From Nitrospirota bacterium (GTDB lineage Bacteria > Nitrospirota > Nitrospiria > Nitrospirales > Nitrospiraceae), in the NCBI GenBank assembly GCA_963703955.1, contig CAVPGK010000011.1:160001-224000 (forward strand): a stretch of 64,000 nt of DNA, written 5' to 3'. The notes under the pieces are model-generated. The model did no database searches. It worked only from the letters and a program-made list of their open reading frames with translations, and was not told the origin of the DNA. The position numbers were made by a program, and so were the translations under genes. Shown one piece after another: positions 786 through 24,634 of the stretch. The number at the start of each line of letters is the position of its first letter. Positions within the stretch are counted from its first letter, which is position 1.

Positions 786-798
786 TGGTGGAGGGCAG
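786..798. repeat. att core, left end of island A
   Basis: TGGTGGAGGGCAG, identical to 24613-24625 (last 13 nt of tRNA-Ala). Confidence 0.85.
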
Positions 799-926
799 CC
801 GATAAATGATTTATTGAGACCGGCAATTCGCATTCCGTTGCGCGCTCACAGCGCGGCCGTCAACGAGCAAAAGTAGCGCAAGATTGATCCGCGAGCCAGG
901 GCGAGGAAGACACAAGTGCCGCTGTA

Positions 927-1109
927 TTACTTGGGCGGGGACTGAGGCATCGCTGCCACGGCGGATGCAGTGGACGTCTGCATGGATGCCTTCAATTCTT
1001 GAATGGCTCTCGCGACGTCACCCTCGGTCGATCCGAATCGGTCTTCCATTACTTTGATGGCCTGATTAATCGCCTTTGTCATTTTTTTGATCTGCTCCTC
1101 AGGTGTCAT
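927..1109 (-). CDS. Small hypothetical protein
   Basis: 60-aa ORF with AAGGAG RBS upstream; helical composition. Confidence 0.5.
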   Translation of the reverse strand: MTPEEQIKKMTKAINQAIKVMEDRFGSTEGDVARAIQELKASMQTSTASAVAAMPQSPPK

Positions 1110-1456
1110 GGAACGTCTCCTTATGGGCGTTCTAACTCTATTCGACGATGGCCCTTGTAATCAAACGTGAGTCAGGATCGCCTGGAAATACAGCTAGAGG
1201 GTATACCTCTGAGCCAATGCAGTCAGGTTAAAATTGCTCAGTTTTCAAGAACCACGAGCCTCCTGTCCGATCTTCTCAGGGATCTCGAAGGATTGCAAGA
1301 GGTCAGCACGCAAAAGCTGGCAGTCATGCCAGTCAGCCGCCGAAGGCGCGGGAATGATGACCTGCGGGTTTGTTTGTTCGCTGGTCGCAGGGGTTGTGGT
1401 CGGGTGATCCTGGTGCCACGCGTCCACCAGTAAGGTGAGGGTATGGGCATAGGCCA

Positions 1457-1620
1457 GTTGCTCGTTTCGCTGGCTGGAAGGGGATGAGTGGGCGAGCCGT
1501 GTCAAGAACGCATTCGACCAAAATTTCTTGAGTGCGAGTGTGGGCCTGACCGTCCAGGAGCATGAGCCGAACCGGCTCGGCGGGGTCAACATCCTGAAGA
1601 GCGAACTGGTCGAATTTTCC
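1457..1620 (+). pseudogene. HK97-type prohead protease remnant
   Basis: Manual translation 1465-1620: FRWLEGDEWASRVKNAFDQNFLSASVGLTVQEHEPNRLGGVNILKSELVEFS, resembling the S-(V/I)-G-F ... EL-x-E-x-S motifs of HK97 maturation proteases; no start codon, frame broken on both sides. Confidence 0.55.
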
Positions 1621-1627
1621 CGCCTTC

Positions 1628-1894
1628 ATGTTTGCGGACGACGACACCCGGGTCCGCATCATTGACGACCCGTTGCATCTACGTGATGACCGCACCCGGC
1701 AGCACATTGGGGAGCGCATGGAGGGGGTGATGCGGCGGGGCCTCGCACAGAACGAACCCATCTACCGAGTCGATCCGGCCGTCATGCGGGAGGCGGCCAA
1801 AACGCTCGCCTCACGACTCGAACGATATACGTACGACCTCATTGCGCACGAGGTCCATGCGGCCATCAATGCCATCCGAGGACGCGTCGATTAA
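1628..1894 (+). CDS. Hypothetical protein (possibly C-terminal part of the protease gene)
   Basis: 88-aa ORF immediately after the protease remnant, same strand. Confidence 0.4.
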   Translation: MFADDDTRVRIIDDPLHLRDDRTRQHIGERMEGVMRRGLAQNEPIYRVDPAVMREAAKTLASRLERYTYDLIAHEVHAAINAIRGRVD

Positions 1895-1926
1895 ACGACG
1901 GATCACACCACAGGAGGGACTGCCGA

Positions 1927-2153
1927 TGAGTGATCTCTCTGACCTGACCCATGAAACGAGCAACAGTCTTCGGGAGGAAATCTTCGAGAACCAACGCAAA
2001 AGCATGGCCCGCCGCGAGGCGATCCGCCTACTGGAACCGGTGTTGAGACGCGCACAGCAGCGGGCGATCGAGGAGGCGCGGCGGCCTATTAAGCTCTATT
2101 ACATCGAAGGGCTTCAGGACTTTGACCCGTCGCTACGGCTGTGGCCACTGTGA
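1927..2153 (+). CDS. Hypothetical protein
   Basis: GGAGGG RBS, MSDLSDLTHETSNSLREEIF..., co-oriented with neighbours. Confidence 0.45.
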
Positions 2154-2189
2154 GTCAGGCCGATACCAACACGTCAGAAGGGAGGCGTC

Positions 2190-2642
2190 ATGTTGAGGAG
2201 TAAGAATGGGCCCGCCACGATGCCGGACCTCGAGGTCCCGATCGATCAATACCCGGACGTCATCACGGCGCGAGAGGGCTTGCAGGCCGCGATTGAACAG
2301 CAAGAGAGGCTCTCTGCCGAATGGGCGACGGTGCAGGAGACGCTCAGGACGGACATCCCGACCTCCTCGTCGAGACGCTTGTCGTCGGCAGAGGAGAAAA
2401 GACTCGCGCTCAAGCGGCGCACGAGTTTACTAGACGAATTCGAGCAGGCCGAAGAGGCCGTCGCGCTGGCCCGCGCCCGACTCGCACAGGCGCGAGCCGA
2501 CGCAAAACAGATGTTCTTGGATATTCATCTGCCGAGGCTGCGTGAGCTGTTCCATGAGGCGTGCGCCCCGCTGGATGAGGTGGCCGAACGCGTCGATGCC
2601 TCGGGGAGTGGTATCGGCAGCTGTGCGACCTCGGGCAACTGA
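2190..2642 (+). CDS. Coiled-coil hypothetical protein, probably frameshifted near 2600
   Basis: GGAGG RBS; heptad-rich E/A/R/L sequence that degrades after VAERVDA. Confidence 0.5.
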   Translation: MLRSKNGPATMPDLEVPIDQYPDVITAREGLQAAIEQQERLSAEWATVQETLRTDIPTSSSRRLSSAEEKRLALKRRTSLLDEFEQAEEAVALARARLAQARADAKQMFLDIHLPRLRELFHEACAPLDEVAERVDASGSGIGSCATSGN

Positions 2643-3224
2643 ACGACGCGGACCGGGCCAGATTTCAATATCCGTTGAGTCATTTCATCTTGACGTATGG
2701 CAGCCCGCACTGGCACGAGACCCGACAGATGTTTCGCGAGCAGGGATTGCTGTGACAGCCGGGGGCCAACAGACGGTGCGGGATTCGGCGCCGACGATCT
2801 GGGCTGCGCGCCCCCGGTGATTACGTGGCGCACCCAGAACGGATCAAGTGGAGGAGCCCGCACGGCGTGGTCGCCGTCGTGCGTTGTGCGACCCAACCGC
2901 TCACCTGCCTCCAATCGGTACCTCCCGCAATCGACCGGGTGAGCGGGCGCGACCTCTTTTCTCTCCTACCCATGTCAGGAGTCGGGAGTTGGGAGATCGT
3001 CGCTGGAAGCGCCCGTGGGTGGGGGGAATCTGAGCGGCACGACCGTGTGTGTCAGGGGTACGGCATGAGCGATCTGTCGAGCGTGTTCATTTGCATAGAG
3101 CGCGTCATGAGGAATCGCCGTGAGGTGGGCCTGGAAGGCGCTAGGACGAGCCGGACGCTATCATCCCCTGAAGTTTGGGGTAGGATCAATCACCTTGAGC
3201 TAACTGCATGCGACGGGGCGGTGG

Positions 3225-3485
3225 TCAGTTTGAGTTCATCCATGTTATCGCCATGGCCAATGCAGCATCATTCGCCTCTTCGTTGGAAGCAAAAGGCTTA
3301 GTAGTGTCGCCATAAATCGGGGTTATGGTTTCTATGCGTTCATCAGTGGATTCCCGAATCTGAGCCGCAGGAATCCAGCCAACTCCAGGGCGTTCATAAG
3401 ACACAAGGCGAAATCGACGATTGTTATAAATGACCCATTCATGCATTTGAAGAATCTCCACGTGCTTCGTCTCTGCCCACTTCAA
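3225..3485 (-). CDS. Hypothetical protein
   Basis: 86-aa ORF, lower GC, protein-like composition. Confidence 0.45.
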   Translation of the reverse strand: MKWAETKHVEILQMHEWVIYNNRRFRLVSYERPGVGWIPAAQIRESTDERIETITPIYGDTTKPFASNEEANDAALAMAITWMNSN

Positions 3486-3512
3486 GGGTTGATGGGTGCG
3501 TTGGGGTTTCCG

Positions 3513-3755
3513 TCATGGTTTCTTCCTTTCATCATGGAGCAGCCAGCTCGCCGGAATCACCGCCTGTTGCCCGGTCAAGGGATGATGCACCCGGATCTGC
3601 CGTCTCCCCACTGGTTCGAGAAAGACACCTTCCAAACGACCGAACAGCGGACTGTCCCAACTCACGCCTTGAACGGCTGTCAAGGGTGGGACGAGTGCGG
3701 TCATAAGCCGCTGGACCTTGTCTTGTTCATCGCTCAGTATCTCAAACAGGCTCAT
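3513..3755 (-). CDS. Hypothetical protein
   Basis: 80-aa ORF with GGAGG RBS. Confidence 0.5.
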   Translation of the reverse strand: MSLFEILSDEQDKVQRLMTALVPPLTAVQGVSWDSPLFGRLEGVFLEPVGRRQIRVHHPLTGQQAVIPASWLLHDERKKP

Positions 3756-3991
3756 TCATCAACCTCCCCGGCGAGGCAGGCTCTATGGTTTTGGATTGCT
3801 TTCGCGTATGGTCCTGGTCGCTTGAGCTTATTGATATGGCCACTCGTGTAGTATGGTAGAAACTCGCGTATCGTCATTGCTTAGACATCCTAATGGTTAA
3901 GTAGTGGTGCAGGGTACCACACTACGTAACATATCGCTCATTTTCCTTATCTGGCAAAATAGGAGGCTAGTGTAGGTACTTATGCCATGAC

Positions 3992-4114
3992 ATGCTGTCA
4001 AAACAGGAGGGTGTCCGCTTTCCGGCATACATCGTGCTGGTCGGGGTCAGCTTGCTCCTCTGGGCCCTGGTCATCGTGCTGCCGTGGGCACGGACGCGAC
4101 GGCGGAAACCGTAA
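3992..4114 (+). CDS. Small single-pass membrane peptide (40 aa)
   Basis: MLSKQEGVRFPAYIVLVGVSLLLWALVIVLPWARTRRRKP*: one hydrophobic helix and a basic tail; below the ORF track cutoff. Confidence 0.4.
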   Translation: MLSKQEGVRFPAYIVLVGVSLLLWALVIVLPWARTRRRKP

Positions 4115-4317
4115 GGGACGCTCCGAGACGAAGTAACGACAAGGACGCGGGCGCACGCACAAACAAATATCGTCATGTAACGATATTAAATTGCCGAAGC
4201 AACTCAACGATGTGATGTAGCGCAGACGAATCGAGGACGGGACCGGGGGTCCATCTCTATCCGAGGTGCCCCCTTTTTCTGTATCGTAGGTACGTCTAAA
4301 CGCACGCAGGAGACACG

Positions 4318-4650
4318 ATGAGGCGGTGTGAGCAGTGCCACACAGACTTTGAGCCGAAACACCCCAGAGCGCGATTCTGTTCGTCCCACTGTCGGGGGGC
4401 CGCGTGGTATGGGCAGCGGCACATGAGGCTGATGACCCTCCGGGGCCTGGTCGTGCGGGTGATCGAGGAAGTGGATGGGCGGGCAACTGTCCGTGAGGAC
4501 CACAAAAGTGTTTTGGCGGAAGAGCCGAAAGAACATCGCCACAATCTCGAACACGAGACGCGTGAGTGGTCGCGACCCGAAGCGCTGCGCCTTTTGCGGG
4601 CAGAAGGCCTGGGCCGGACGCACCGACCTCAGCGGGGTGTTTCTCTGTGA
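4318..4650 (+). CDS. Small Zn-finger protein (CxxC...CxxxC)
   Basis: AGGAG RBS; MRRCEQC...RFCSSHCR; 3' half overlaps the next ORF, so the true end is uncertain. Confidence 0.5.
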   Translation: MRRCEQCHTDFEPKHPRARFCSSHCRGAAWYGQRHMRLMTLRGLVVRVIEEVDGRATVREDHKSVLAEEPKEHRHNLEHETREWSRPEALRLLRAEGLGRTHRPQRGVSL

Positions 4651-4711
4651 ATCGTGCTGCCAGCGGGGCGAGCGACTACTGAAAGAACGGAGACTCAAGA
4701 AGGAGGAGTGA
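4475..4711 (+). CDS. Small basic Zn-finger protein
   Basis: CAFCG...LCESC motif pair. Confidence 0.4.
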   Translation: MGGQLSVRTTKVFWRKSRKNIATISNTRRVSGRDPKRCAFCGQKAWAGRTDLSGVFLCESCCQRGERLLKERRLKKEE

Positions 4712-4714
4712 GCG

Positions 4715-5026
4715 ATGGCACTCGCCGACTGGCTGATTCGCATCGGAGGCATCATGACGCTTGACAACTGGCTGATCCTCATCGGAGCCATCATGATGCT
4801 CATCGGACTAGGACTGGCCTTCGTCTCGACTCGCATGATTGCAGAGGTGGGAGCAGCCCGTAGGGGCCTTCTTCTCTTCGGACTCGAACCAGGAAGTCCT
4901 AAGGAGATTGAGCGGGCTCGCTTGCTGAAACGGTCTGACGTAGCATTTTGGTTGGGATTGGGATTCACGGCTGCCGGCATCATCTTCCAGACCGTCGGCG
5001 CGCTGTTAGCGGGAAACCCTCATTAA
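4715..5026 (+). CDS. Small membrane protein
   Basis: GGAGGAG RBS; two hydrophobic segments; imperfect 39-bp tandem duplication at the N-terminus. Confidence 0.55.
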   Translation: MALADWLIRIGGIMTLDNWLILIGAIMMLIGLGLAFVSTRMIAEVGAARRGLLLFGLEPGSPKEIERARLLKRSDVAFWLGLGFTAAGIIFQTVGALLAGNPH

Positions 5027-5039
5027 GGGAGGATTGACC

Positions 5040-6772
5040 ATGAACGTCGCCCTGTACGCTCGATTCAGCAGTGAACACCAACGGGAGACCTCCATTACCG
5101 ACCAGTTTCGGAACTGCGAGCAATACGCAGCGCGCCAAGGCTGGACCGTCACGCATCGCTACGAGGACAAGGCGATCTCCGGGGCGACGGCCGAGCGTCC
5201 CGGCTATCAGCAGATGCTGAAAGATGCGCAGGCGCATCGGTTCGACGCGCTGTTGATCGACGACTTCTCGCGCCTCTCGCGTGATCAGGTCGAGACGGAG
5301 CAAGCCCGACGACGGATGGTGCACTGGAAGGTGCGGCTGATCGGCGTCTCCGACGGCATCGATACCGCCGCCAAGGGGCACAAGCTGCTCTCCGGGTTCA
5401 AGGGGATCATGAATGAAGTCTTCCTCGACGATCTGAAGGACAAAGTCAGTCGCGGGATGGTGGGGCAAGCCCTGAAGGGCTATCACTGCGGCGGGCGGTC
5501 ATATGGCTACACGCTCAAATCCGACTATGATGCGAGCAAGCCCGATCAGGCACGATCGGCGATTCTCGGCTCTCGGCTGGCGATCCATCCGGAGCAGGCG
5601 CGATGGGTCCGGTGGATTTTCCAACAGTATGCGGACGGCTGGTCGCCGCTGAAGATCGTCAACGAACTCAACCGCAAGGCGATTCCTCCGCCTGGCGCCG
5701 CCTATCGCCGCACGTCCACGCGACGCCCCTCCTGGTGCGCCAGTGCGCTGCACGGCGATCTGAATCAAGGCACGGGCTTGCTCAATAACCCGCTGTACAT
5801 CGGGCAGTCGATCTGGAACCGGTCGCGGTGGGAGAAAGACCCCGACACCAAGCGCAAGAACGCTTCCTGCGCGACCGGAGCGAGTGGGTGGTCACCCCGG
5901 CCCCGCATCTGCGCATCGTGACCGACGATCTCTGGGAGCGCGTCAAGGCGCGCCAGCGGGAGATCAGACACAGCAGTGCGGCGATCCGTGAGGCGTTGCA
6001 CGTCAACGCCCGGACCGGGCGCGGGCCGAAGTATCTCTTCTCCGGGCTGCTCATCTGTGGGGCGTGCGGCGGGAAGTACGTCATTACCGAACCGCATCGC
6101 TACGGCTGTAGCACCTGGCTCTATCGCGGCGAGTCGGTGTGCGCCAATACGGTGAAGGTCTCACGGACATTGGTCGAGACGTTGCTCCTGGAGTCCATCC
6201 AGCGCGACCTCTTCACCGACGAGGCGCTCGCCCTCTTCAAGCAGGAGACGGCCCGATTATTAGCAGAGCGGCGACAGGCGCAGACGCCTGATCTCGTGCA
6301 GGCCAAGGCCCGCCTCGCGCAGGTGGAGCAGCAGATTGCACACATGCTGGCGGCGATCAAGGAGGGCTTCCGATCCGACACGCTCAAGCAAGAGTTAGAG
6401 GAGGCGGAACGGGAACGCGCCCGGCTACAGACCACGATCCACGGGCAGCGCCAGACGCTCGACAAGGTGGCCGACGTCCTCCCCAACGCGGTGGCGCGAT
6501 TCAAGACGCTCGTCGAGAATCTGTCCACCGTGACGCAGAAGCAGGTCGATAAGGCGCGTGGGATTCTTCGGGACTTGGTGGGGAAGCAGATTCCGTTACA
6601 CCCGACCACCCACGGCACGGAGCGGTATCTGACGGCGGAATTGTCCGGGGATTATGCGGGGCTGATCCGGCTCGTCCTGGGTCAAAATAAGTTTGGTGGA
6701 GGGCAGGTGTTACGCCCGTGGTTGGCAACATCACTTTCTTTTGAACTGAAGGGCACTGCGATTGCTGCCTGA
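5040..6772 (+). CDS. Large serine recombinase (integrase), split by a 1-nt frameshift near 5858
   Basis: MNVALYARFSS catalytic motif, DDFSRLSRD, recombinase domain (LLNNPLYIG), Zn-ribbon (LFSGLLICGACG...YGC...C) and coiled coil; ORFs 5034-5921 and 5828-6772 join at DPDTKRK/RFLRDRSEW. Confidence 0.9.
6694..6707. repeat. att core, junction of islands A and B
   Basis: TGGTGGAGGGCAGG, identical to 24613-24626; encodes GGGQ within the recombinase ORF. Confidence 0.85.
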
Positions 6773-6914
6773 GCTTGATAGAGGCAATACGGGTTCAAAT
6801 CCCCAACGGGATATTTCCCAAGGGGGCCATGCAGTTATCCCATTCTTCCTAAACATCACCGTGAGCGCAGTGTGGGTCAAAACGATGCGTTCACATCCTT
6901 GAGAATCGAGCCAG

Positions 6915-7262
6915 AAGCCCAATCCCCGCAATACCCAAGCATGGGCTTACCCGATGAAACGTGCCCTGAGGGAGCACGGTACACGGGCAATAGACCGCAG
7001 AACCAGCCTTGGGAAGGCGCTCGACCGTTGGGGATCAACTGGTCTCTGACCTGGGCGGACTTGAACAGGTTTCGACTCAACAGCACGCCATCATCAATGT
7101 CGCGGTCAAAACCAAGCTACTACTCGATAGCATTGACGCCTGGCTCTTGCAGCAACCTAGCCTCATCAACCCTCGCAAGCGATCCGTTCATCCGGTAGTC
7201 CTTCAGAGACAGCAACTTGCCGATAGCCTCATCCGCGCAATGGACCAGCTCGGCTTAGATGG
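6915..7262 (+). pseudogene. Frameshifted phage-satellite-like helical protein (possibly small terminase-like)
   Basis: Across frames: KHGLT/MKRALREHGTRAIDRRTSLGKALDRW/DQLVSDLGGLEQVSTQQHAIINVAVKTKLLLDSIDAWLL...; similar fragment at ~1250-1328. Confidence 0.45.
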
Positions 7263-7480
7263 CTCTGCAACCTGTCTCAATCCTGGTCGTACTCATGGTT
7301 ATCCTTCCAGTCATTATCCATCAGCGTCGAATGTTTCGCCTTCCGGCATCTGCTCTCCCAACAGGAGTTGCCGGCCCACCCATGGAGCGCTGTCTGCGCT
7401 CTATGCGTCACGTCGAGCCCAACGGTGTACGGACCAATCCGGTCACCTCACGACCGCCGTTTGGAATCGATCCCGGCCCA

Positions 7481-7742: not shown

Positions 7743-8192
7743 CTATGCCACTTTCACCTCGATCGCTTTCGGTTTCGCCTTTTCGGACTTCGGTAGGTGG
7801 ACATGCAGCACGCCATCTGTGAACTCCGCCATGACCTTCATGTCGTCGGCATCGTCCGGCACGGTGAAGCTCCTCACGAATGTTCCATATGTCCGCTCGA
7901 TCCGGTGATACTTCTTCCCTTTTTCCTCCTTCTCTTGCTTTCGTTCGCCCTGGATGGTCAACACCCCGTCCTGCACCGTGACTTTCACGTCTTCCTTCTT
8001 CACTTCGGGCAGTTCGGCTTTGATCACATATTCTTTGGCGTCTTCGCTGATATCCACGGCTGGAGACCAGTCCGCCACGGTCAGTGTCTCCTTGCTACCC
8101 TCCTGCCGTGCCGGTAATCGACCGAGTAGGCGGGTGAACCGCTCGCTCATTTCCTCAAGCTCCCGAGATGGATCCAAACGCAACAGATTCAT
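7743..8192 (-). CDS. Hsp20/alpha-crystallin small heat-shock protein
   Basis: WSPAVDISE...AELPEV...VLTIQGER...ERTYGTFVRSF...DGVLHVHLPK. Confidence 0.95.
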   Translation of the reverse strand: MNLLRLDPSRELEEMSERFTRLLGRLPARQEGSKETLTVADWSPAVDISEDAKEYVIKAELPEVKKEDVKVTVQDGVLTIQGERKQEKEEKGKKYHRIERTYGTFVRSFTVPDDADDMKVMAEFTDGVLHVHLPKSEKAKPKAIEVKVA

Positions 8193-8327
8193 GGCGACCT
8201 CCTTTATACTTTTATATTGTTCCCCACACCTCGATATGGTACCGGATGCTCTATCCTCCTGGATCCGACATACGTTCCTACAGGCTGATCCTGGCTGCCT
8301 CCCTCGAGACCAAGGCTGCTGCTATGA

Positions 8328-8740
8328 TCATGCGCCCTGCATGGCGGCCGTGAGTTCCGGGCGCGGAACACCTCCCATCGTGAGACCATCACTGCCGCGG
8401 TCCACAACCACCCGCTGCCCGGGCCGGATCTCGCCTGCAATGATCTTCTCGGAGAGCGGCTCAAGGACATGCTCTTGGATCGTCCGTCGCAGCGGACGCG
8501 CGCCGAACGCCGGCTCGTACCCCACCTTCGCTAGGAAGTCTTTGGCGGACTCCGTCAGCTCGATCTCCAGGTCGCGCTGGGCGATCAACCGCGCCATGCT
8601 CCGCATCTGGATATCCACGATCTCGCGGATTCGCCGCGCATCGAGCCGCTTAAAGACGATGGCGGCATCGATGCGGTCAAGAACTCCGGTCGGAACGTGG
8701 CCCGCAATGCCTCGAGCACCCGTTTTCTCGGCCTCCCACC
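8328..8740 (-). pseudogene. Clp ATPase (ClpB-like) C-terminal remnant
   Basis: VLEALRATFRPEFL / RIDAAIVFKRL...GYEPAFGARPLRRTIQ; frameshifted, N-terminal domains absent. Confidence 0.85.
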
Positions 8741-8862
8741 GGTAGGGTTTAGCGTCATACAGTGTTTCAATAACAGAAATTTTCTGAAACGAACAAAAAG
8801 AACATAAGTAATCTCTCAATCACCGATTCCATTACTCGGCTCACGAAGGCGGTATGACGCGT

Positions 8863-9117
8863 TCACGAGGCCTTTGGTTCGGCATCTTGGTATCCCGCAC
8901 CCACATAGCTTCCGGCCCAGTGGGCATACCGACGGTTAACCCAGGTCATGACCTCATCCTTCTGTGCCTCGCCATACCGTTTCTGAAGCACGCTGCCAAA
9001 CGTGGCGAGATTGCCCTCGATCTCGAGAAGATCCTCATCCGTAATCTTCTCCCACTTTGCCTTGAGGAGCGCTTTGAGTTGGGTCCAGAACTGTCCGAAC
9101 TGTTCCTGATTCATCAT
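8863..9117 (-). CDS. CsbD-like general stress protein
   Basis: MNQEQFGQFWTQLK...KWEKITDEDLLEIEG...LQKRYG; AAGGAG RBS. Confidence 0.8.
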   Translation of the reverse strand: MMNQEQFGQFWTQLKALLKAKWEKITDEDLLEIEGNLATFGSVLQKRYGEAQKDEVMTWVNRRYAHWAGSYVGAGYQDAEPKAS

Positions 9118-9249
9118 GTGCTCCTTGGTTATGGGTGATGGAATCGCAGACCGCTCCGCCTCCTCACGACGGTCGAAACGCATGAACACGATCCAGACCT
9201 CGTCGTCGAACACGGACACGCTGGCGCAGAAGCGGTGCAGACCGTGAAA

Positions 9250-9904
9250 TTAGTCGTGCAGAACGACGTTGAGGAGGGAGCTGTGCACATGGAAGCCACC
9301 ATTGTAGTCCAGGAAGCCAAGTTTACGGAACCTATTCATGAAGAAACTGACGCGGGACCGCGTGGTGCCGATCATCTCAGCCAGCGTTTCTTGACTGACC
9401 TTCGCAATGACCGGCTCCGGCTTACCTTCTTTCCCAAAGTGGGCCAGCAGTAGGAGGATCCGCGCCAGCCGCTTCTCGGCTGAATTAAAGAGTTGATCCA
9501 CCAAGTCCTCTTGGATGCGAATATTGTTCGCCAGCAGATAGGACATAAACAGCTCGGCGAACGTGGGCTCCTCGTGAAGCGCGCGGATCATGGCGTCTTT
9601 GTCGATGCCCACGATCTTGGAGTCTTCCAGGGCGGTCGCGGTGGCCGTCCGAACCGTCTGCCCGGCGAGGCAGGATTCTCCAAAAAAGGCACCCGGTTCC
9701 AGAATCGCGACGACAGCTTCTTTGCCCTGTTGCGAGACCACGGTCAGCTTGACCGTGCCCGCCTGGATATAGAACACGGCTTCCGCCGCATCCCCTTGCG
9801 AAAAGAGAATCTGCTTCTTTCGGACCTGGCAGGGTCGTTTTTCCGCTGCCGACTTGTGTGAGGAACGTCTTGGGATGAAACGGCGTGGTTCGTTTGCGTG
9901 CCAT
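9250..9904 (-). CDS. Crp/Fnr-family regulator, 1-nt frameshift near 9830
   Basis: N-terminus MARKRTTPFHPKTFLTQVGSGKTTL in one frame joins VRKKQILFSQGD...FFGESCL...SQETLAEMIGTTRSRVS (cNMP domain plus HTH) in another. Confidence 0.85.
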
Positions 9905-10865
9905 CGGCCTACTCGCCTTGACTTCTCCGCCACTCTTTGTGTGAGCAGATGGGAGTAGCGGGGCATCAGACCAGGCACCCGATCGATCTTTTTTTTTGGT
10001 GTCCCGGGGAAGATGGGACGTGGACATGGCAGCTCCTTCCCTTCATCGTGTGAAAGATCTGATAATTCTGTAAGGGAGAGTCCTACCGAATCGTGAATCT
10101 GCATGTGGAATGCCAGCCTACAGCGGACGTGCAGCGCGCCCCAATCCCTTGGAATCATGAGTAAAGGCCGTACTCAGCGGCATGGAACACCGGCAAAGAG
10201 CCTGTGGCATTATGGGTCATGGAAAAGCGAGGCTCTGTCCTCTAATTCCACATTGCTTAGTGCGTGGCGGCTCACGACTTAGAAAGACTATGTGCAGTTC
10301 AGCGAGAAGGGAGGTTTCTGATCTGATAAGTGGTAAGAGATCCTGGCCATTTACGTTGACCGTTTCTAAAAATGGATTCAAGCCAATAGCTTTGTAACCC
10401 TGAATCGGTGGATACATCCAGAGCTGTCGTAACTGCGGATCCAGATACAGTATTATTTTATGCTTATCTTCCTTGCCTCCATTGGCCTTGAGTGGCCCCC
10501 TATACGTCAGCCTAACTCCATAGAGAAAGCTCCCAGCCGCAACCTATGCAATAAGCAAGGGAGAAGCGGAAGGTCTTGAAAACACTGGAGCCGGTCTTCG
10601 GCGGCTGATCTGCCCCTATCTGCCTCAATAACCTCGCCGGCCCAAACCTGCTGGTATTCGTCCTTTCTTCAGAATCTCTTGGAAGTCCACAAATATCCCA
10701 TCTGGTCCTCTCCGGCTATCATCTGGCACCGGGCATGCTTAATCATGAACAAGTGTGTCTAAACGCCGAAACGGAAATGTTGCGGCGTGATGAGAAAAAA
10801 GACTAATGGGAGTCTCAAGTTGATCATACTATTGTAACTAAGCACCGAAGCGGATCGGGCACGAC

Positions 10866-14699: not shown

Positions 14700-14786
14700 C
14701 AGAGGTAGGTTCATCGCTACGCTCGATATCGTAATGGCATCAACAACCCCCGACGTGGTCGATTGAACAGCTAGAAACGAAGTGAC

Positions 14787-15719
14787 ATGGAATTCAAGGA
14801 CTACTACAAGCTTCTCGAGATTGAGCGCACGGCGACGGCCGACGACATCAAAAGCGCATACCGCAAGCTGGCGCGAAAATATCATCCGGACGTGAGTAAA
14901 GAGCCGCAAGCGGAAGCGCGCTTTAAGGAAATCGGCGAAGCCTTCGAAGTGCTTCAGGACCCGGAGAAGCGCGCCGCCTACGACCAACTCGGCAATCGCT
15001 GGCGGGCGGGGCAAGAATTTACCCCTCCGCCGGACTGGGCTGCGGGCTTCGAGTTCACCCCCAGCGGCGCTTCCGCGGCGGATGCCACAGACTATAGCGA
15101 CTTCTTCTCCGCCCTGTTCGGCAACTTCTCCCGTCACAGCACATCCACCCGTGCTCATGGCGAGGACCATCATGCCAAGATCTTCATTGCACTCGAGGTT
15201 GCGTTTCACGGCGGAACACACACGATTACCCTGCGTTCACCTCAGGTGAATGAGCAAGGTCAGCTGGTGCTGCAGGAGCGGTCGCTCAACATACAGATTC
15301 CCAAAGGCATCCGTGAAGGCCAGCATATCCGACTGACGCGGCAAGGCGCGCCGGGAGCCAACGGAATGCCCGCGGGTGACCTCTATCTCGAGATCTGTTT
15401 TCACCCCCACCCCCTGTACCAGTTACAAGGCCGCGACCTGTCTCTCTCATTGCCGCTTGCACCGTGGGAAGCGGCCCTCGGGGCCACGGTCAAAGCGCCG
15501 ACCCCAACCGGTGTGGTTGAAGTTAAAATTCCCCCGGGCTCGCAGAGCGGGCGAAAGCTAAGACTTAAGGGACGCGGCATCCCCGGCGAACCGGCGGGCG
15601 ATCTCTATCTTGTCCTGGAAGTGGTCCTTCCGACAGCGGACACGGAGCAGGCACAACAGATCTATCAAACCATGGCGCGGGAACTGGCCTTCAATCCGCG
15701 CCAAGCACTGGGGGTCTAA
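14787..15719 (+). CDS. cbpA: DnaJ-class co-chaperone CbpA
   Basis: J-domain with HPD, no Zn finger, DnaJ C-terminal domain; followed by cbpM. Confidence 0.92.
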   Translation: MEFKDYYKLLEIERTATADDIKSAYRKLARKYHPDVSKEPQAEARFKEIGEAFEVLQDPEKRAAYDQLGNRWRAGQEFTPPPDWAAGFEFTPSGASAADATDYSDFFSALFGNFSRHSTSTRAHGEDHHAKIFIALEVAFHGGTHTITLRSPQVNEQGQLVLQERSLNIQIPKGIREGQHIRLTRQGAPGANGMPAGDLYLEICFHPHPLYQLQGRDLSLSLPLAPWEAALGATVKAPTPTGVVEVKIPPGSQSGRKLRLKGRGIPGEPAGDLYLVLEVVLPTADTEQAQQIYQTMARELAFNPRQALGV

Positions 15720-15721
15720 TT

Positions 15722-16042
15722 ATGGATAGGGAGGAGGAGCTTCTGACAGGAAGCGTGATCGGTGATGAGGGTGTGCTGTCGATCGAGGAGTTGGCGAGAG
15801 CCTGTAGCGCGGAGGCGCAGTGGATCATCGAATTGGTGGCCGTGGGGGTGCTGGAGCCGCAAGGTACGGAGACCTCGCGCTGGCGATTCCGTGCGACGGA
15901 TCTTACCTGTGCCCGCCGAGTGGCCCGCCTCCAACGGGATTTTAATGCCAGTCTCGATGCGGCCGCAGTGATGCTCGATCTGCTCGATCAGATCGAACAG
16001 TTGCGCGCTCGGCTGAAGCGGGCCGGCCTGGATGTGGAATAG
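15722..16042 (+). CDS. cbpM: Chaperone modulator CbpM
   Basis: MerR-like LSIEELARAC...ELVAVGVLEP...RLQRDF; synteny with cbpA. Confidence 0.9.
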   Translation: MDREEELLTGSVIGDEGVLSIEELARACSAEAQWIIELVAVGVLEPQGTETSRWRFRATDLTCARRVARLQRDFNASLDAAAVMLDLLDQIEQLRARLKRAGLDVE

Positions 16043-16170
16043 GTCTGCAGCACAAGGGACGCGGGGGGAGCTGACTCGTCGTGCCGCTCTTAGGTCACTG
16101 CCGTTGCCTGCTTCTGGCACCTGGGCAGCCGTTGGCGATTTAATGATCGGCACTCTTACGGACATGAGCC

Positions 16171-16605
16171 ATGAGTGATATGATGCGTGTTCTGTGCCCC
16201 CGGTGCTACACCATCAATCGCGTCCCGGCAGCACGCTTCGCGGATCGCCCTAAATGTGGCCAGTGCCACGAGCGGCTGTTCACCGGACACCCGATTGCGC
16301 TGACGGCGGCGGACTTCGACATGCACGCCACCCGAAGCGACATTCCGCTGGTCGTGGATTTTTGGGCGCCGTGGTGCGGGCCCTGCCGAATGATGGCTCC
16401 AGCGTATGAGCAGGCTGCCAAGATTCTGGAGCCACACCTTCGCCTGGCCAAGGTGAACACGGAAGAGGAACAGGCGCTTGGGGCCCGCTTCGGCATTCAA
16501 AGTATCCCGACCGTGATATTGCTTCGCGGAGGGCATGAAGTGGCGCGGCAATCCGGGGCCCTCGGCGCGCAGGACATCGTGCAGTGGGTCCGTGCCCATC
16601 TGTGA
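16171..16605 (+). CDS. trxC: Thioredoxin 2
   Basis: N-terminal CPRC/CGQC Zn site and WAPWCGPC. Confidence 0.93.
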   Translation: MSDMMRVLCPRCYTINRVPAARFADRPKCGQCHERLFTGHPIALTAADFDMHATRSDIPLVVDFWAPWCGPCRMMAPAYEQAAKILEPHLRLAKVNTEEEQALGARFGIQSIPTVILLRGGHEVARQSGALGAQDIVQWVRAHL

Positions 16606-17935
16606 TTCGAACATTCGACGCGCGCGACTTCTCCTGTTACGGGTATGGTGCAGTCTGAGGCCGGATTGAGGAAAGGGGCATAGCACGAGCGTGAGCCTAT
16701 GTGCCCAACCGGCCAGAGCCTGCCATAGAGGAATGAACTACCCCCTGTGGCTAGACCAGCCGCCATGTGAGTCAGGCACCACACGGGGCAGTTCCTCAAG
16801 GTGCCGCTGGCCTACGTTTCGTGTTTTGGGCAGGTCCCTAGACGAGACAACCACGGCAGCTTGAAAGGCGCTCAAAGTTCTCAACGATGAGGGGTGCTTC
16901 CCCTCCCACCCCTGCGACTGCGTGAGCGATTGTCTACCACGCCTGGCTGTCTCGGGCTCGTTGATTTCGAGGAGAGAATGATTATCTAAGAACTGAAGGA
17001 GGTGGAGTGAGAGTTGAGGCGTTTGAGTTTGACCCACCTTTGTGTAGCCAGCGTGCATAGGGCATCGCTTCTGCTTCAGTGGCGGGGTGGGTTCAAGGTA
17101 CACGCTCTCGATCGTCGGTGCCGCTAGGTGCAGCCGTAGATGCGAGTCTGAACCAAAAGTGAAGCGTGGGGCAATCAGCCTTAGGCGACTGAAGGATTGC
17201 TGGACCTGGCCCCGTTCGGATGGCAGCCCCGGTGTTCCACACAAGGGCGGGCCGTTTTGTGTGTGACCGCATGGTTCCTTCCTCGCACTTTCTCCATCTT
17301 CATGAGAGCCTGCAGAATTATCCCCTACAGCGAATAACGACATATGGGTCTCATAAAAGCAACACCACATGATTATGATCGAGGGAATTCGCGAGGAGGA
17401 TAATAAAAAAACGAAGCGGAGGCCAGTCCAGAGAGCTCTGTGTCGATTGTGGAAGTCTTGGAGGGGTTTTAGGCTTCCCGCTCATCCTGGCGGGCCTGCT
17501 CACCGCCCCTGCGCTTGACCTCGATTCCCTTGAGTGTTCCTCTCCCCGAGTCCTCCGCTCACTTATAAGATAACCGTCCGTCGCGAGAAATCAATCGGTG
17601 GAGCGGCCCCGTTCAGTCAAGACCGTTCCCTGACTCACGGTGGCAGGCGGTCTCCTGTTCCCAGGATCAATCGTCGGCACCAGGGCACCTGAACGGTGGC
17701 CTCACAGCTGGGGGTAGATCACGGGACGGTGGCTCGGTGACTATCAAAGTCTTGCATACTTCTTAGCACAGCACGCGGTGGATACGCATTGGGCTTTCCA
17801 GTAGACTGACCTCCCAACGAATGGCGGACTCTGGTGGGCCATGCTGCAAAGGCCGACCGTAGCCGACGTGCCAGTTGCGATGCCGTTCGTAACTTCTTGA
17901 GGCAGATGCGTATTCGTATAACTAGGAGGCACGAG

Positions 17936-18391
17936 ATGAACGATCAAGACACACAACGTGCGGTTGGGATTCTCAACCACATTATGGAGCATGAGTTGGC
18001 AGGAGTCGTACGGTATATGCATTACTCCCTCATGATCTATGGCTATAATCGCATTCCGATCGTGTCTTGGCTGAAAAGTAATGCCGACGAGAGCTTTGCA
18101 CATGCACATAAAGCCGGAGAACTGGTCACCTTGCTAGGCGGCCACCCGTCGCTGAGAATTGGGGCACTCTTGGAAACTGAGAAGCATGATGTGGGAGACA
18201 TCCTCGAGGAAAGCTTGGAGCACGAGAAGGCTGCCATCGCCTCCTATTACGAACTCCTGAAAGTCTCCGAAGGAAAGTCCGTGCTGTTGGAAGAATATGC
18301 ACGAGAGATGATCGTCAGCGAAGAGCTGCACCTTGACGAGGCGAACAAGATGTTGCGGAAGTCAGGTGATGTTCAACCATTTCGCTCCTGA
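17936..18391 (+). CDS. Bacterioferritin-like ferritin-family protein
   Basis: ELAGVVRY...DESFAHA...EHE...EELH di-iron pattern; AGGAGG RBS. Confidence 0.85.
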   Translation: MNDQDTQRAVGILNHIMEHELAGVVRYMHYSLMIYGYNRIPIVSWLKSNADESFAHAHKAGELVTLLGGHPSLRIGALLETEKHDVGDILEESLEHEKAAIASYYELLKVSEGKSVLLEEYAREMIVSEELHLDEANKMLRKSGDVQPFRS

Positions 18392-18759
18392 CCTAACCCT
18401 TCAATCCACCGGGCAGGAAAACGTGGAAAGAAACGAGTGTGGGGAGCTAGTGTCGTCTCGGCCGCGCTGGGAGACCAAAATGGTTTCCCGCCGATACCCC
18501 ACGCGCCGCTCTTGGCTTCTTCCACCAGTACCCACGTTGCGTCACGCAGCTGTTCTCCGCTGCTCGCGCCCGATTCAAAAGAAACTGCTGAAAAGGAAGT
18601 TGGCGTGAGTGCGCGAACGATTTCGGAACTTTTCTTAACGAGAATCCAGACCTAACCTTAAGCGCTGGAAAATGAGAAGGCGAGTCTCATCGGACAAGGC
18701 GTGAAACAATCGGGCGGCCTTCTCAGGATGCTTGATACTGATGGTCACCATAGAGCATC

Positions 18760-18787
18760 TTACACATCAATAATAGTTGATGTGTAA
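18760..18787. promoter_or_regulatory. Palindromic operator (ArsR/SmtB-like) upstream of cadI/arsI remnant
   Basis: TTACACATCAA-TAATAG-TTGATGTGTAA: perfect 11-bp inverted repeat. Confidence 0.55.
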
Positions 18788-18887
18788 AATCGCGTCATTT
18801 CGGATTCTGCATCCTTTTCGACCGATCTCCGTCTATAGAAACGAAGGCAATGGGGCCTTCACTCGAAACAAAGATAAGGAGACCGCC

Positions 18888-19049
18888 ATGAGACTACATC
18901 TGTCCCTCGACGTCCGTAGCGTCCCAGAATCAGTGGAGTTCTATCAAAAGGTGTTTGGAATCACCCCGCAGAAGCAAACCAGCGACTATGCCAAGTTTGA
19001 TCTGTCCCGTCCGGCTTTGAACCTGTCTCTTGTCTCATCGACAGGCTGA
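18888..19049 (+). pseudogene. ArsI/CadI-family glyoxalase-fold protein, truncated
   Basis: MRLHLSLDVRSVPESVEFYQKVFG..P.K...DYAKFDL..PALNLSL then a stop at 53 aa. Confidence 0.75.
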
Positions 19050-19252
19050 ATCAAAAGAACTGGACGATACTTCGCTCGGATCACAAGAAATTCTTCATTC
19101 GTTTCAAGCATTGGAGTCTGCATCGGAATGGAGCGCTTAAACGCATCCTTGCCCGCAGGCTCGATATGAAATTTTGAAGCGAGGGTCTTCCTGGATCCGC
19201 GATCTGTCCTGTCTCGGGGGTCGGGGTGATTAAGCGGGAAAGTACAGTTCTC

Positions 19253-20113
19253 TCAGGGAACCACGATAATGGGACAGGGAGCCTGATGCAGAACGGCGTG
19301 AGAGACGCTGCCGAGCAAGAGCCGTTCCACTTTGCCCGGACGCCGAGTCCCTACGAGAATCAGATCCGCCGCGGTTTCAGCCGCCCATCCAGAGATGGCC
19401 ACCTCCGGTCTGCCCACCGTTACGACGCTGGTGGCACGATAACCGATCTTCCTCAGCCGCGAGACCACCTCATCGACGAATTGCCGGGCCACCTCTACGA
19501 TCTTCTTGTTGACGCTGTCCGCTGTCTCGATCCCCACCGGCCATAAGAGAGGGAAGAGCACGACGGTCAGGGCCGTGATCTCGACAGCCTCGGGAAACGG
19601 TTTGGCAGTCAGAAACTTGAACACTGCCTCAGCATCTGCCACCCCGCTCAGCGCGATGACAAGACGACGAAGTCCTTGCATGGGCCTATTGACCATCCAG
19701 ACCGGGCAGTGAGAGTGTAAGATGACGTTGTGGGTAACACTCCCCAGTACCAGTTCCTTGAGTGAACCAAGCCCCCGACTGCCCAGGACGATCAAATTCG
19801 ACCGTTCTTTTGCCGCCGTGGCAAGAATGACTTCAGCAGCCGTGCCCTTCTCTACACGGGTTGAAACCGCCTGGACAGTAGAGGGCAGGAGGGATTGCAT
19901 TTGTTGGATCAGGTGTTCGCCGTCTTCCTGACGCTGTTGCTCCAACGTGGTATACAGCCCTGAAGAGATCTCTGGGACAATCGTCGGGTACGTCCACGTT
20001 GGAATATCCAATACGTGCAGGACCGTCACTGATTGCATGGGGGCCAAGTAGCTGAGGGAGCGTGCGGCTTCTCGGGCTTCCTCCGATCCATCTACGGCGA
20101 GCAAAATGCGCAT
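19253..20113 (-). CDS. Tandem-domain universal stress protein
   Basis: MRILLAVDGS...LIVLGSRG...LGSVT...LLGSVSHAVLHQAPCP. Confidence 0.93.
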   Translation of the reverse strand: MRILLAVDGSEEAREAARSLSYLAPMQSVTVLHVLDIPTWTYPTIVPEISSGLYTTLEQQRQEDGEHLIQQMQSLLPSTVQAVSTRVEKGTAAEVILATAAKERSNLIVLGSRGLGSLKELVLGSVTHNVILHSHCPVWMVNRPMQGLRRLVIALSGVADAEAVFKFLTAKPFPEAVEITALTVVLFPLLWPVGIETADSVNKKIVEVARQFVDEVVSRLRKIGYRATSVVTVGRPEVAISGWAAETAADLILVGTRRPGKVERLLLGSVSHAVLHQAPCPIIVVP

Positions 20114-20681
20114 GACCCCCTCCATAATCAGGCATGTCGCTTCTATGCAGGTGAGAGCGAACACTTGCTGTATAGCATAGAGAGGTGGTGTTTCGACACT
20201 CCCCCCTGCTCTCTTGCGCCCCACCGCTTGACGTCGAGAGACCTCTGAACGTGTACGCAAAGCATGGTTCTCACTAGTGCCGGTTGACCCAAAACCACAA
20301 ACCTGGACCGGGTAGAGCAATACGATCCTGCCCTACAAATTAATTGGCTTTGGATACCTGAACCCCTTGAGTAGCCGCTAGAAATACTTTTATGTAGTTG
20401 ACAGGTATCAAAAATTGTTTCCTGCCGCGTAATCCTCTTGTAATACCGCTTGAAGCGGTTCAGCGCTTCAAGACATGAGCGGCAATCCATTCTTTGGCTT
20501 CATGTGCAACGGTCACCGGAGCCTCAAGGTCATTGAGACCGAATGAGGTGCCGTTGCGCCAAGCGCCGGACTGATCTCTGAACGGCCGTGAGAATCGCGA
20601 TGAGAGAGAAACCCGGCCGCAGTGGGCCCTGGAAGGCTATCGCCGGCCGATCAGGACAGGTGGCCCAGTGGCTTTAGACGG

Positions 20682-21224: not shown

Positions 21225-22737
21225 CCTTAATCCGAAAATAAAAAATTCGGGTTTTTGCTGAACCGGATCAACAAAAAAGGCCTCCTGTGTGGTAAAGAGA
21301 GCGGGCGCGCCAACGCACGACTCTCAACGCAGGAGGCCCCGAAAATGCGCTTGAGACTAGCAAGCCTACGCCGCATTGTCAAAGGTGATCTCCGCGTGGA
21401 ATTCGTCCGCCAGGAGTTGACCTCGTACAGTGGATTGGAACTGCTGCGCCGGTACTTTGCCTTGCTCGATTTGCATCGCCGCATCCGACAGGCCTTCAGC
21501 GCCTACGGACTCGCCGGCGACTATGGGTGTGGGCGCCTGGTCCTGCTGATCATCGCCCTGCTCGTCGTCGGCGCGCGCCGGCTGGAGCATCTGCGCTATA
21601 TCGCCCATGATCCGCTCGTGGGGCGACTGTGTGGCCTCGCACGGATTCCCTCGGATCGTACGGTCGTCAACTGGCTCAAGCAGTTTACCCAGGAGGCCCT
21701 GCAGGCGCTGATCACCCTCAATAGCGCACTGCTCTATCGAGCAAATCGAGCGGCTGGGCTTGAGCCGACTGACCATTGATGTGGATGGCACGGTCGTGCG
21801 GACTGGCGGCGCGGTCGCGTGGGCCTTTCGGGGCTTCAACCCCCATCATCGCAAAGATCCCAGTTACTATCCGCTGCTGGCGCATCTGGCGCAGACCGGC
21901 CAGATCCTGCGCCTGCGCAACCGGCCGGGCAACGTGCATGACAGTCGGGGCGCCGTCACCTTTGTGCGGGACCTGGTCCGTGAACTGCGCGGCCGGTTCG
22001 GGCGTGCCCTCCCGCTGGAATTCCGTATGGACGCGGCCTTCTTCCAGCAGGAGATCCTGGCGCTGCTGGTCCGGGAGGGCTGCGAGTACGCCATCAAGGT
22101 CGGCTTCTGGACCTGGCTGGACCTCAAGGCACGGGTCGCCGCTCAGACCCGCTGGGACCGTGTCGACGACCAAGTGAGTTGCTGTGAGGCCAAGGTCCCC
22201 GTTGAGCCCTGGGGCCTGACATTGCGGGTCGTCCTCTATCGCAAGCAGGTCCGCCACGAGACCCGCAAGAATTTCCAACTCGATCTCTTCTCCCCCGATG
22301 ACGGACACTTCGAGTACTCGGCGGTGACGACCAACAAGGCGCTCAGCGGCCCGTCGCTCTGGGCCTTCATGGCCGGCCGCGGGGCCCAGGAGAAGACGTT
22401 GGCGGAACTCAAGGGCGAATTCGCGCTGGACGTGGTCCCCACGAACCACTACGGCGCCAACAGTGCCTGGCAGCAGCTCAGCGTGCTGGGCCATAACCTG
22501 CTGCGGAGCTTCCAGCTCCACACGCTGGCGACGCTGAAACCCCGAACACGCAAGCGCACCTACGCCTATGTCTTGCAGAGTATGCGGACCTTGCGTTTCC
22601 TGTTCATCAACCGGGCTGGCCGACTGACGCGGATCGCCGACCACCAGGTGCTGCGAATGACCAGCAATCCGGCTACGGAGGCGCTGTACTCGCAAGTCTC
22701 CCATGCCTTGGTGACCTAATTTATTTTCGGATTAAGG
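21225..22737 (+). mobile_element. IS1380-family insertion sequence (1513 bp)
   Basis: Perfect 18-bp terminal inverted repeats CCTTAATCCGAAAATAAA (21225-21242, 22720-22737); 4-bp target duplication CTAA (21221-21224, 22738-22741). Confidence 0.93.
21345..22719 (+). CDS. IS1380-family DDE transposase, 1-nt frameshift near 21738
   Basis: LTSYSGL, TIDVDGT, YYPL, LRNRPGNVHD, FRMDAAF, RGAQEKTLAELK motifs; ORFs join as LLY/EQIERLGLSRLTIDVDG. Confidence 0.9.
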
Positions 22738-22907
22738 CTAATTCGGCGAGCGTCATATACAAACAAAGATGAGCGAAGATGCTTGATAGCATCGTCAAGA
22801 TCCGCCCTGTCTGAACAGTCAAGCGGAGTGTCAACGGTCAGAAGATGGATGAGCCGGTTCGTCGCGACAAGAAACTCACTGATCTCATGCTTCCGTTCCA
22901 TCTTCAC
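22716..22907 (-). CDS. Small hypothetical protein whose 3' end is replaced by the IS end
   Basis: ORF reads into the right inverted repeat; removing the IS gives ...DARRISCLH*. Confidence 0.35.
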   Translation of the reverse strand: MKMERKHEISEFLVATNRLIHLLTVDTPLDCSDRADLDDAIKHLRSSLFVYDARRISLNPKIN

Positions 22908-23517
22908 CCAGTCAGCAGGACCCCTTTTGAACCGGGGGTGATCGTTAGTAGATCATAATACGTAAATAAGAAGAGTCAATATAACCAACAAGGAAAATTC
23001 AGCAGGCTATTCTTTGGGTGATGAAGACGTTCGTTCCTCCGGTTTGCCCCACATGGCCCGGAACACCCCGCACTGGTCAGGCGTTATTTCCCGACCTGAA
23101 CCATCAATTCCATATCGGATCAGTTGGAGGTTCAGCGAGCGGAGGCGAGTGGGAGCAAGGTGGTCGCACGAGCGCGAGTCCGGGAGGAAGGGGCCGCGAC
23201 CCAGCCGCAACCTACCTGCCCCGTAACGATGGGCACACCCCCCACCGGGCATCAGCTTGGGTCCCATTTCTGGCTTGCATAGGATTGGCAAAAGCAAGGG
23301 GTAACTATCTCGTCTCTTGACAGCAGTGTCCAAAAAGCTTACTTGGATGCTGCCCTGCTCACCAAGGAGGGCAATATGACATTTGTCGCAAGCCGACTTG
23401 TTTCTGGGTGACGTTCTGTTTCGCTGGAGGAGATGAGCTATATGACAAAGGAGAAAATGGCAGCTCTTGAAGGTAATCGCAGGAGCGGCGCTAGCAGTCA
23501 TCATAGCGGTCTACTCT

Positions 23518-23671
23518 AAGGAGAAAATCAAGAAGAAGACATTTGTGAAGACCACCCTCAAGCCGGGCGAGCATGTCCTGTACAAAAAAATACGCTGCCA
23601 GAGAAGTGGAGGGCAACGACGAAGAGTTGGTGCTGGTTCGTGAAGAGGATGTCTTGGGTTATCTTCGGTAA
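23518..23671 (+). pseudogene. GroES co-chaperonin C-terminal remnant
   Basis: FVKTTLKPGEHVLYK/KYAAREVEGNDEELVLVREEDVLGYLR*; frameshift in an A7 run. Confidence 0.7.
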
Positions 23672-23726
23672 TTGACATTCTTCACAGAAAGAGAATTGGT
23701 CTCAAATCGGGGCCAGGAGAGCGATC

Positions 23727-24038
23727 ATGAAGATGCTGACCATTGTCTGCGGGGAGAAGCTTGAAGAGGAGATCCTCGCCGTGTTTAAGGACCTGGGAAT
23801 CAAAGGCTATACGGTCATTTCGGGCGTGGGAGGCAGTGGTCAGACCGGAACGGTATCCGGGACCGGCGGCTGGACCGATCGAAATAAGCTGTTCATGGTC
23901 GCGCTCGAAGATGATCACATTCACATGACACAGGTGCTGAACGCCGTGAGGGAGATCCATACCAGGCATGTTCACGGGTACCGTGGCCTTGAGATCCCGC
24001 TCAAAGTATTCCTTCAACCCTGCGAAGTCATCCTCTAA
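23727..24038 (+). CDS. P-II-like small protein
   Basis: MKMLTIV...LGIKGYTVISGVGGSG.TG pattern; AGGAG RBS. Confidence 0.75.
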   Translation: MKMLTIVCGEKLEEEILAVFKDLGIKGYTVISGVGGSGQTGTVSGTGGWTDRNKLFMVALEDDHIHMTQVLNAVREIHTRHVHGYRGLEIPLKVFLQPCEVIL

Positions 24039-24085
24039 CGATCGTATGCCCGAATCCTTGACCGACTTGAGAATGGCGAAGAGGA

Positions 24086-24634
24086 TTGGATATCCTCGAC
24101 TCGGCTATCCTCCACGCCATGAACGAGGCTCTCGATGAACGAGTCCTCGAAGCCTCGGTTGCAGCTGCCCTGGAACGGATCAGGAATGAGCAGAAGAAGT
24201 TCCCGGATCAACGCGGGGCTCTTGAACGGGAGCTTTCATTGATTCAGACGCGCCTACATCATCTCGTGGAACTTGTCGCCAACGGCAAGGGGACTGATTC
24301 GGTAGTCGCATCGCTGCATGAGGAGGAAACACGGAAGAAGGTCTTGGTGGACGAACTTTCGAGACTCGATAACCTCGCCCAAGTGGTTTCCCTGGACGAG
24401 AAGCGTCTAGCCAAGGAACTTCGAAGCCGTCTGGGAGACATCCCCGCCCTCTTCGCTCGCCACGTACCTCTAGCCCGCCAGATGCTTAGGAAGCTTCTGG
24501 ACGGGCACATCGTCTGCGAGCCGATCTTGGAAGGCGGGAAACGAGGTTATCGGTTCACGGCCACAGGGACCTTCGACCGTTTACTGACCCGCGTGAAGGT
24601 TGTCAACGAAAGTGGTGGAGGGCAGGGGATTTGA
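24086..24634 (+). pseudogene. Large serine recombinase C-terminal remnant reading into the tRNA antisense strand
   Basis: Coiled coil plus ARQMLRKLLDGHI motif paralleling ARGILRDLVGKQI of the island A recombinase; ends VNESGGGQGI*; catalytic domain missing. Confidence 0.8.

Follow-up and report, generated by a model that had tools for sequence, protein, structure and literature searches.

The window analysed here, a stretch of 64,000 nucleotides (nt) from a Nitrospirota bacterium (assembly GCA_963703955.1, contig CAVPGK010000011.1, positions 160,001 to 224,000), carries two tandem islands, A and B, that were integrated at the 3' end of a tRNA-Ala(CGC) gene through large serine recombinases, and the recombinase gene crosses the attachment (att) site of the circular form (attP). 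The protein encoded on the circle ends in a tail of 21 to 28 amino acids (aa), and the protein encoded beside the tRNA gene ends in Gly-Ile and a stop codon. There is also a third state, missed by the first-pass annotation that had been made from the letters of this DNA alone: the displaced inner island of a tandem array takes the long tail of its neighbour, as island A does. The features concerned are listed below (ORF, open reading frame; the two tail classes are described further on).

786..798, + strand: att core copy 1, outer junction of island A (exact sequence match)
799..6706: island A (5.9 kb); most of its ORFs are small and have no clear Pfam family
799..876, + strand: tail A, 25 codons and a stop, class 2; orphan 3' end of the island A recombinase gene
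5040..6772, + strand: recombinase A, with Resolvase, Recombinase and zinc-ribbon domains and a coiled coil; now ends in tail B
6694..6706, + strand: att core copy 2, A/B junction, read as GGGQ (exact match; symmetry scan)
6707..6772, + strand: tail B, 21 codons and a stop, class 1, ends in IAA
6707..24625: island B, 17.9 kb (Pfam scan)
24086..24634, + strand: recombinase B remnant, ends in GGGQGI and a stop (homology)
24613..24688, - strand: tRNA-Ala(CGC); the 13 nt at its 3' end form core copy 3, overlapping recombinase B on the opposite strand

The att core and its tRNA target

A 13-bp core was found as exact copies at positions 786, 6694 and 24613 and nowhere else in the 3.3-Mb assembly. 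With up to one mismatch allowed, there were four matches versus 0.15 expected, and none of 100 shuffles reached four. The reverse complement of the core forms the 3'-terminal 13 nt of tRNA-Ala(CGC), CCA included; the recombinase frame reads the core itself as GGGQ. Exact matching and translation agreed with the first-pass annotation on this reading of all three copies, and the three tails following GGGQ were translated as it had written them. One contig from a soil sequencing run covered positions 683-947, across core copy 1. In a dyad-symmetry scan of nine reconstituted attP sites, made without a formal null, the best centre lay 10-11 nt into the core at seven, and the sites had 13-17 symmetric matches out of a possible maximum of 29, likewise without a formal null. 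The crossover is therefore likely to lie 10-11 nt into the core.

Overlap with RNA genes was surveyed at 239 loci from three collections, counting antisense tRNA or transfer-messenger RNA (tmRNA) genes that start between 70 nt before and 30 nt after the ORF end. Such an RNA gene was present at 75 recombinase ORFs, and its 3' end lay inside the ORF in 75 of 75, an outcome that the search window favours, and the overlap came in two registers, a GGG type and a VxG type. According to a paper on an island database, serine integrases have no known tRNA gene targets (PMC4383910; this and the other papers cited are represented by excerpts of their text); contrary to this statement, tRNA genes are plainly targeted by these serine recombinases. 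An att repeat of at least 10 bp was found within 10 kb upstream at 8 of the 75 loci, with tail-like peptides recognised by eye at four of them and not at the other four. A close relative (L194, 1878-2228) targets a tmRNA gene with the same in-frame overlap. The recombinases of L149 (~11600-11722) and L242 (~1900-2004) end with two successive VAG-type blocks, which look as if an old tail start had been kept before a new tRNA junction.

Conservation of the tail in relatives

A core search of 301 family genomes gave 329 matches, of which the first 30 loci and the sites from multi-hit genomes were fetched; the resulting set contained 198 distinct sites, the window included (87 full tRNA-Ala genes and 111 others). 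The class-1 tail pattern was found at 28 sites, all 28 in the recombinase frame, and 26 of these tails had 21 aa, one 20 and one 46. The class-2 pattern was found at seven sites, six in the recombinase frame; the seventh (L339) was in the next frame, that of the other register, to which its recombinase also belongs. Upstream of tRNA-Ala, 17 of 27 core copies were followed by a tail motif, and the other 10 comprised six tRNA-like repeats, two apparently broken class-1 tails and two unexplained copies. Among 84 unlinked core copies, the motif was present in 0 of 36 inside long ORFs and in 18 of 48 outside. The C-termini of 120 listed homologues were, by eye, mostly tRNA antisense, and the few long tails were tail-B-like (P0007, P0021, P0026 and P0047) or tail-A-like (P0032).

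Both tails of the window belong to these classes. On profiles built without window sequences and compared with a null set of 295 peptides, tail B scored 37.8 on class 1 (0/295 as high) and tail A scored 36.0 on class 2 (1/295 as high, that one being itself a class-2 tail). The hydrophobic pattern that the first-pass annotation had seen in common between the two tails held in one direction only: tail A scored 11.2 on the class-1 profile (matched by 1/295 null peptides and 1/2000 shuffles), and the score of tail B on the class-2 profile was not significant (23/295 and 82/2000). A lack of conservation in the left-end tails of homologous islands was one of the outcomes that the annotation had named as refuting its reading; these tails were conserved in frame and at the protein level, and the reading was not refuted on this count. 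Judging from these comparisons, the tail swap is real across the recombinase family.

The 26 class-1 tails had entropies of 0.85, 0.63 and 1.21 bits at the three codon positions and of 1.83 bits after the stop, which was fixed in position and encoded by TAG in 14, TAA in six and TGA in six. The ratio of nonsynonymous to synonymous polymorphism (pN/pS) of the whole tail was 0.57, compared with 0.99 and 1.30 in the other frames; for codons 8-21 it was 0.52 versus 0.84 and 1.42, and for codons 10-21 it was 0.46. None of 200 column shuffles reached a pN/pS this low, a count that overstates the significance because the genomes are kin. Given the likely crossover point described above, codons 8-21 are past the att arm. 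These patterns indicate that selection acts on the tail at the protein level. That the tail is neutral read-through, conserved through the attP DNA arm and not as a peptide, is very improbable and largely refuted. The first tail codons do overlap the symmetric att arm, and the ends of DsiB, a serine recombinase with a similar layout, are divergent (PMC3146451), but the codon-position pattern is strongest in codons 10-21, past the arm, and neither the three different stop codons at one position nor the high entropy beyond them fits a DNA constraint.

Free and integrated forms

The att site lies inside the recombinase gene, as the first-pass annotation had it, and long-tail attP forms were present in free phage records. 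Of 15 virus records with long-tail genes, two phage records, L035, whose tail ends in LAA, and L071, have direct terminal repeats (circular records) and only one core copy, which lies within the long-tail gene; others are tandem arrays. The linear virus records L050 and L069, each 100% complete, had one core copy each. In prophage L031 the recombinase ends in tRNA-Met antisense, and an in-frame tail resembling those of its relatives L032 and L033 is encoded at the far end, at a distance of 36.6 kb. From these records, both states, long-tail and stub, evidently occur in nature.

Two further candidates for free circles were rejected: the long tail of L040 was donated by a tandem neighbour, and L087 is a provirus with several core copies. 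No core was found at the far ends of the L041 and L043 records, and the L028 record had no pattern match. A viral scan with a single recombinase protein as query gave no match, and among cultured phages there was one distant match, Mae-JY29 (26%), whose C-terminus by eye had no such junction. Contigs of four sequencing runs, compared over positions 400-7400, a range that does not include the predicted junction 24626/6708, showed no circle junction.

Structural context of the tail

The model of a short form (P0002) showed a C-terminal hairpin and a helix with a disordered end. In the model of the C-terminal half encoded in the window with tail B (mean predicted local distance difference test, pLDDT, 86), the tail formed a short helix and a strand. 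This long model matched 9y66_A (Z 11.6, root mean square deviation 7.2, 204 residues aligned) and 4kis_C (Z 10.2, root mean square deviation 7.1, 171 aligned), and in most rows the solved integrases aligned to model residues 53-276, to or near their last modelled residues. GGGQ corresponds to model residues 283-286, and the model thus shows the canonical domains all ending about 10 residues before it. Because the solved integrase folds end before GGGQ, the tail is best described as an appendage.

These models bear on the possibility that the tail is the normal C-terminus needed for full activity, so that integration cripples the enzyme, as with Mx8 or SSV1, and excision needs the tail of a neighbour or an enzyme in trans. 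McMurdie suggested this for DsiB (PMC3146451; see also PMC6070905), and it agrees with the conservation of the tail as protein and with a strand before the tail that spans 258-268 in the long model but is shorter (535-541) in the short one. It is nevertheless quite unlikely: the cut falls behind a glycine linker, past every domain of the solved integrases, and the hairpin and helix are retained in the model of the short form.

A conserved tyrosine, Tyr269, corresponds by range ends to residue 532 of 9dxf_A, the SPbeta integrase according to its title. In that enzyme F532 is flanked by residues of the recombination directionality factor (RDF) that are needed for excision (PMC11722253). When the tail and DNA-binding domain 2 (DBD2) were modelled as two chains, the scores (0.02, 0.38 and 0.15) gave no verdict and were used neither for nor against an interaction.

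Likeness to a degradation tag

The 26 class-1 tails ended in LAA (11), LVA (5) or LAV (2) among others, with AA in 14 and AA or VA in 21; AA ends made up 0.8% of the 1701 long ORFs of this genome. ClpX recognises terminal LAA. The tmRNA tag was ANQELALAA in six of six family loci and clpX was present in this genome, whose own tmRNA was not found in the 82%-complete assembly. A free-form ssrA-like end that is removed by integration would fit the sequences of class 1 and not those of class 2.

The tail might be a degradation tag and nothing else, keeping enzyme amounts low on the circle and in the inner islands of arrays, and leaving direction untouched. We regard this as somewhat unlikely. The constant 21-aa length of class 1 with its free AA or VA end speaks for it, as does the precedent of mycobacteriophage BPs, in which attP lies inside the repressor gene and integration strips a C-terminal proteolysis tag (PMC3694055). 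However, an alternating hydrophobic core (F12, I14 and G16, with conservation of 0.88-0.96) varies as little as the end itself, and by eye this core recurs in class 2 and in phage tails without AA.

Proposed mechanism

We tentatively favour a reading in which the tail serves the circle form as a regulatory appendage, a proposal that seems plausible if short of probable. The tail would turn back to dock, as a strand, against the C-terminal hairpin of DBD2 in the vicinity of the RDF site, and class-1 tails would end in an ssrA-like ClpXP tag; the circle enzyme would be short-lived and set for integration. Integration would remove both tail features and leave a stable enzyme with its full set of domains, able to excise later.

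Several points weigh against this reading. The class-1 and class-2 patterns were written after the data had been viewed, and the related genomes are not independent. One antisense frame of the tail also had a low pN/pS (0.60), as expected because third positions are shared. The modelled tail strand reached a pLDDT of only 54-59, and the match of Tyr269 to F532 comes from range ends only, which makes it a lead and not a residue-level alignment. Only 5 of 42 other long tails ended in AA and the class-2 tails, tail A included, have no AA end, so the tag is not family-wide. Finally, both recombinases at the locus are broken.

A broader version, which we consider unlikely as a whole, is that a widespread group of large serine integrases targeting tRNA and tmRNA genes carries control of direction and stability in cis. 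The tail, held by a glycine linker some 17 residues away from the residue that contacts the RDF, would occupy the RDF site, commit the circle enzyme to integration and mark it for ClpXP; integration would cut it off and yield an excision-permissive enzyme, perhaps without a separate RDF. Newcomers to an array would re-tag and lock the older island, and two clades that are 27-28% identical would share the tail. Small ORFs upstream of the recombinase at 24 loci included no conserved RDF candidate; RDFs share no fold. The only recurrent small ORF within 1.5 kb upstream, named by eye as helix-turn-helix (HTH)-like, occurred at 9 of the 24 loci (L103, L181, L185, L186, L190, L195, L198, L207 and L208), and island A had no match to it.

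If the tail sets direction or half-life, it would provide a self-contained integration/excision switch for serine integrases. Database entries from integrated islands end in tRNA-antisense stubs, and recombinases mined from genomes may therefore be tested in the wrong form.

Recombinases and cargo of the two islands

The system at this locus is dead as assembled, and both islands are decayed. Recombinase A matched the Pfam families PF00239 (N-terminal serine catalytic domain, E 5.4e-27), PF07508 and PF13408, and Ser10 was invariant across 32 relatives. It changes frame near 5840-5858 relative to four of four homologues at 60-70% identity. The contigs of the four sequencing runs skip positions 5782-6015, so they neither bear out the frameshift nor mark it as an error of assembly. 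Of recombinase B, a C-terminal piece of 182 aa remains (coiled coil and C-terminal part), its first ~380 residues being gone; this piece shares 70-87% identity with residues ~380-574 in four full-length relatives and 45% with a fifth. The remnant gave no Pfam match, and the PF00239 domain is absent from it. The N-terminal parts of its relatives matched only recombinase A in this 82%-complete assembly, at 25-28% identity; A-type and B-type enzymes are 27-28% identical. As assembled, neither circle encodes a whole enzyme, since recombinase A is frameshifted and recombinase B is a remnant; the first-pass annotation, which left out both defects, had each circle encoding recombinase plus its own tail, and this does not hold here. 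Close homologues bear Nitrospira names and intact relatives are common; these, and not the decayed example in the window, are the ones to study. A second recombinase remnant (contig C17, 219831-220397, - strand), 45% identical to the C-terminal half of recombinase A, lies ~2.5 kb from the 3' end of a tRNA-Met gene.

The cargo of island B at 7743-20320 is a heat and oxidative stress set by Pfam, comprising Hsp20, a full ClpB and a ClpB fragment, DnaJ with a MerR-like partner, thioredoxin, a ferritin-like protein, Usp, Crp, a CsbD-like protein and a PPDK fragment. Island B also encodes P-II. A DDE transposase is divided over two ORFs (21255-22719). A T-loop-like stretch in tRNA sense orientation lies at 6790-6805, just past the stop of tail B. 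To the left of the array, positions 3-500 encode a Phd/YefM antitoxin followed by a partner gene that appears broken by eye.

The host flank to the left of the array contains a further feature.

622..770, + strand: ~150-bp tRNA-Ala-like repeat (aligned with six like repeats)

The repeat duplicates the 3' end and T arm of the tRNA, continues with an internal hairpin and closes with an inverted T arm. Its position beside tRNA-Ala(CGC) is conserved in many relatives (e.g., L261, L277, L304, L323, L404 and L431), and its hairpin is also weakly present elsewhere in the genome (contigs C6 and C17). No Rfam family was found at gathering score for positions 500-1000, the repeat included. The repeat may serve as a spare att target or represent a mini-element.

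Comparison with known systems

In the literature within reach, subscription papers and supplements being outside its scope, no account was found of a conserved or tagged attP tail on a serine integrase, and the excerpts of PMC10083194, PMC12884075, PMC13626063 and PMC3816273 contained no mention of recombinase tail swapping. The SPbeta, phiC31, LI and Bxb1 integrases share with the recombinases described here the catalytic, recombinase and zinc-ribbon domains and the inserted coiled coil. In contrast, the excerpts describe no state-dependent tail for them, and their direction is set by a separate protein at the junction of DBD2 and the coiled coil (PMC11722253, PMC11795197). In mycobacteriophage BPs the repressor is the split protein and the integrase is tagged in both states (PMC3694055), whereas here the recombinase itself is split.

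The first-pass annotation had named only tyrosine integrases as precedents for attP inside an integrase gene. The integrase IntP of myxophage Mx8 has attP inside int, and integration gives it a new 3' end and altered activity (PMC6070905, PMC4383910); it is treated as a tyrosine integrase, unlike the serine enzyme here with its ~21-aa tail past the fold. The 'suicidal' integrases of the SSV family have the recombination site within the integrase ORF (PMC7253208), and integration splits their gene in two, whereas the long part here keeps all modelled domains. Recombinase A of this locus carries serine family domains and does not belong to the tyrosine family of Mx8 and SSV.

The closest precedent is itself a serine recombinase, which the earlier list lacked. 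In the ssrA islands of Dehalococcoides, the 3' end of the serine recombinase gene dsiB always overlaps the att repeat, its stop is supplied by the neighbouring island or by ssrA, and full function of DsiB may require the circle or the 3' fragment of a neighbour (McMurdie 2011; PMC3146451). An attP within a serine recombinase gene is thus already known, and the present case is not the first. Common to both are a large serine recombinase, a 3' end over an att repeat at the 3' end of a tRNA or tmRNA gene, and tandem islands; the donation of a recombinase 3' fragment by the tandem neighbour was also found here. None of the six-gene DsiB module (DsiA, ParB, Mom) was present among 32 hand-picked ORFs scanned in these decayed islands. 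The two systems differ in their target, tRNA-Ala(CGC) here and not a tmRNA gene, and the excerpts of the DsiB paper report no conserved tail, selection test or tag, whereas the tail described here is conserved in frame, length and codon pattern.

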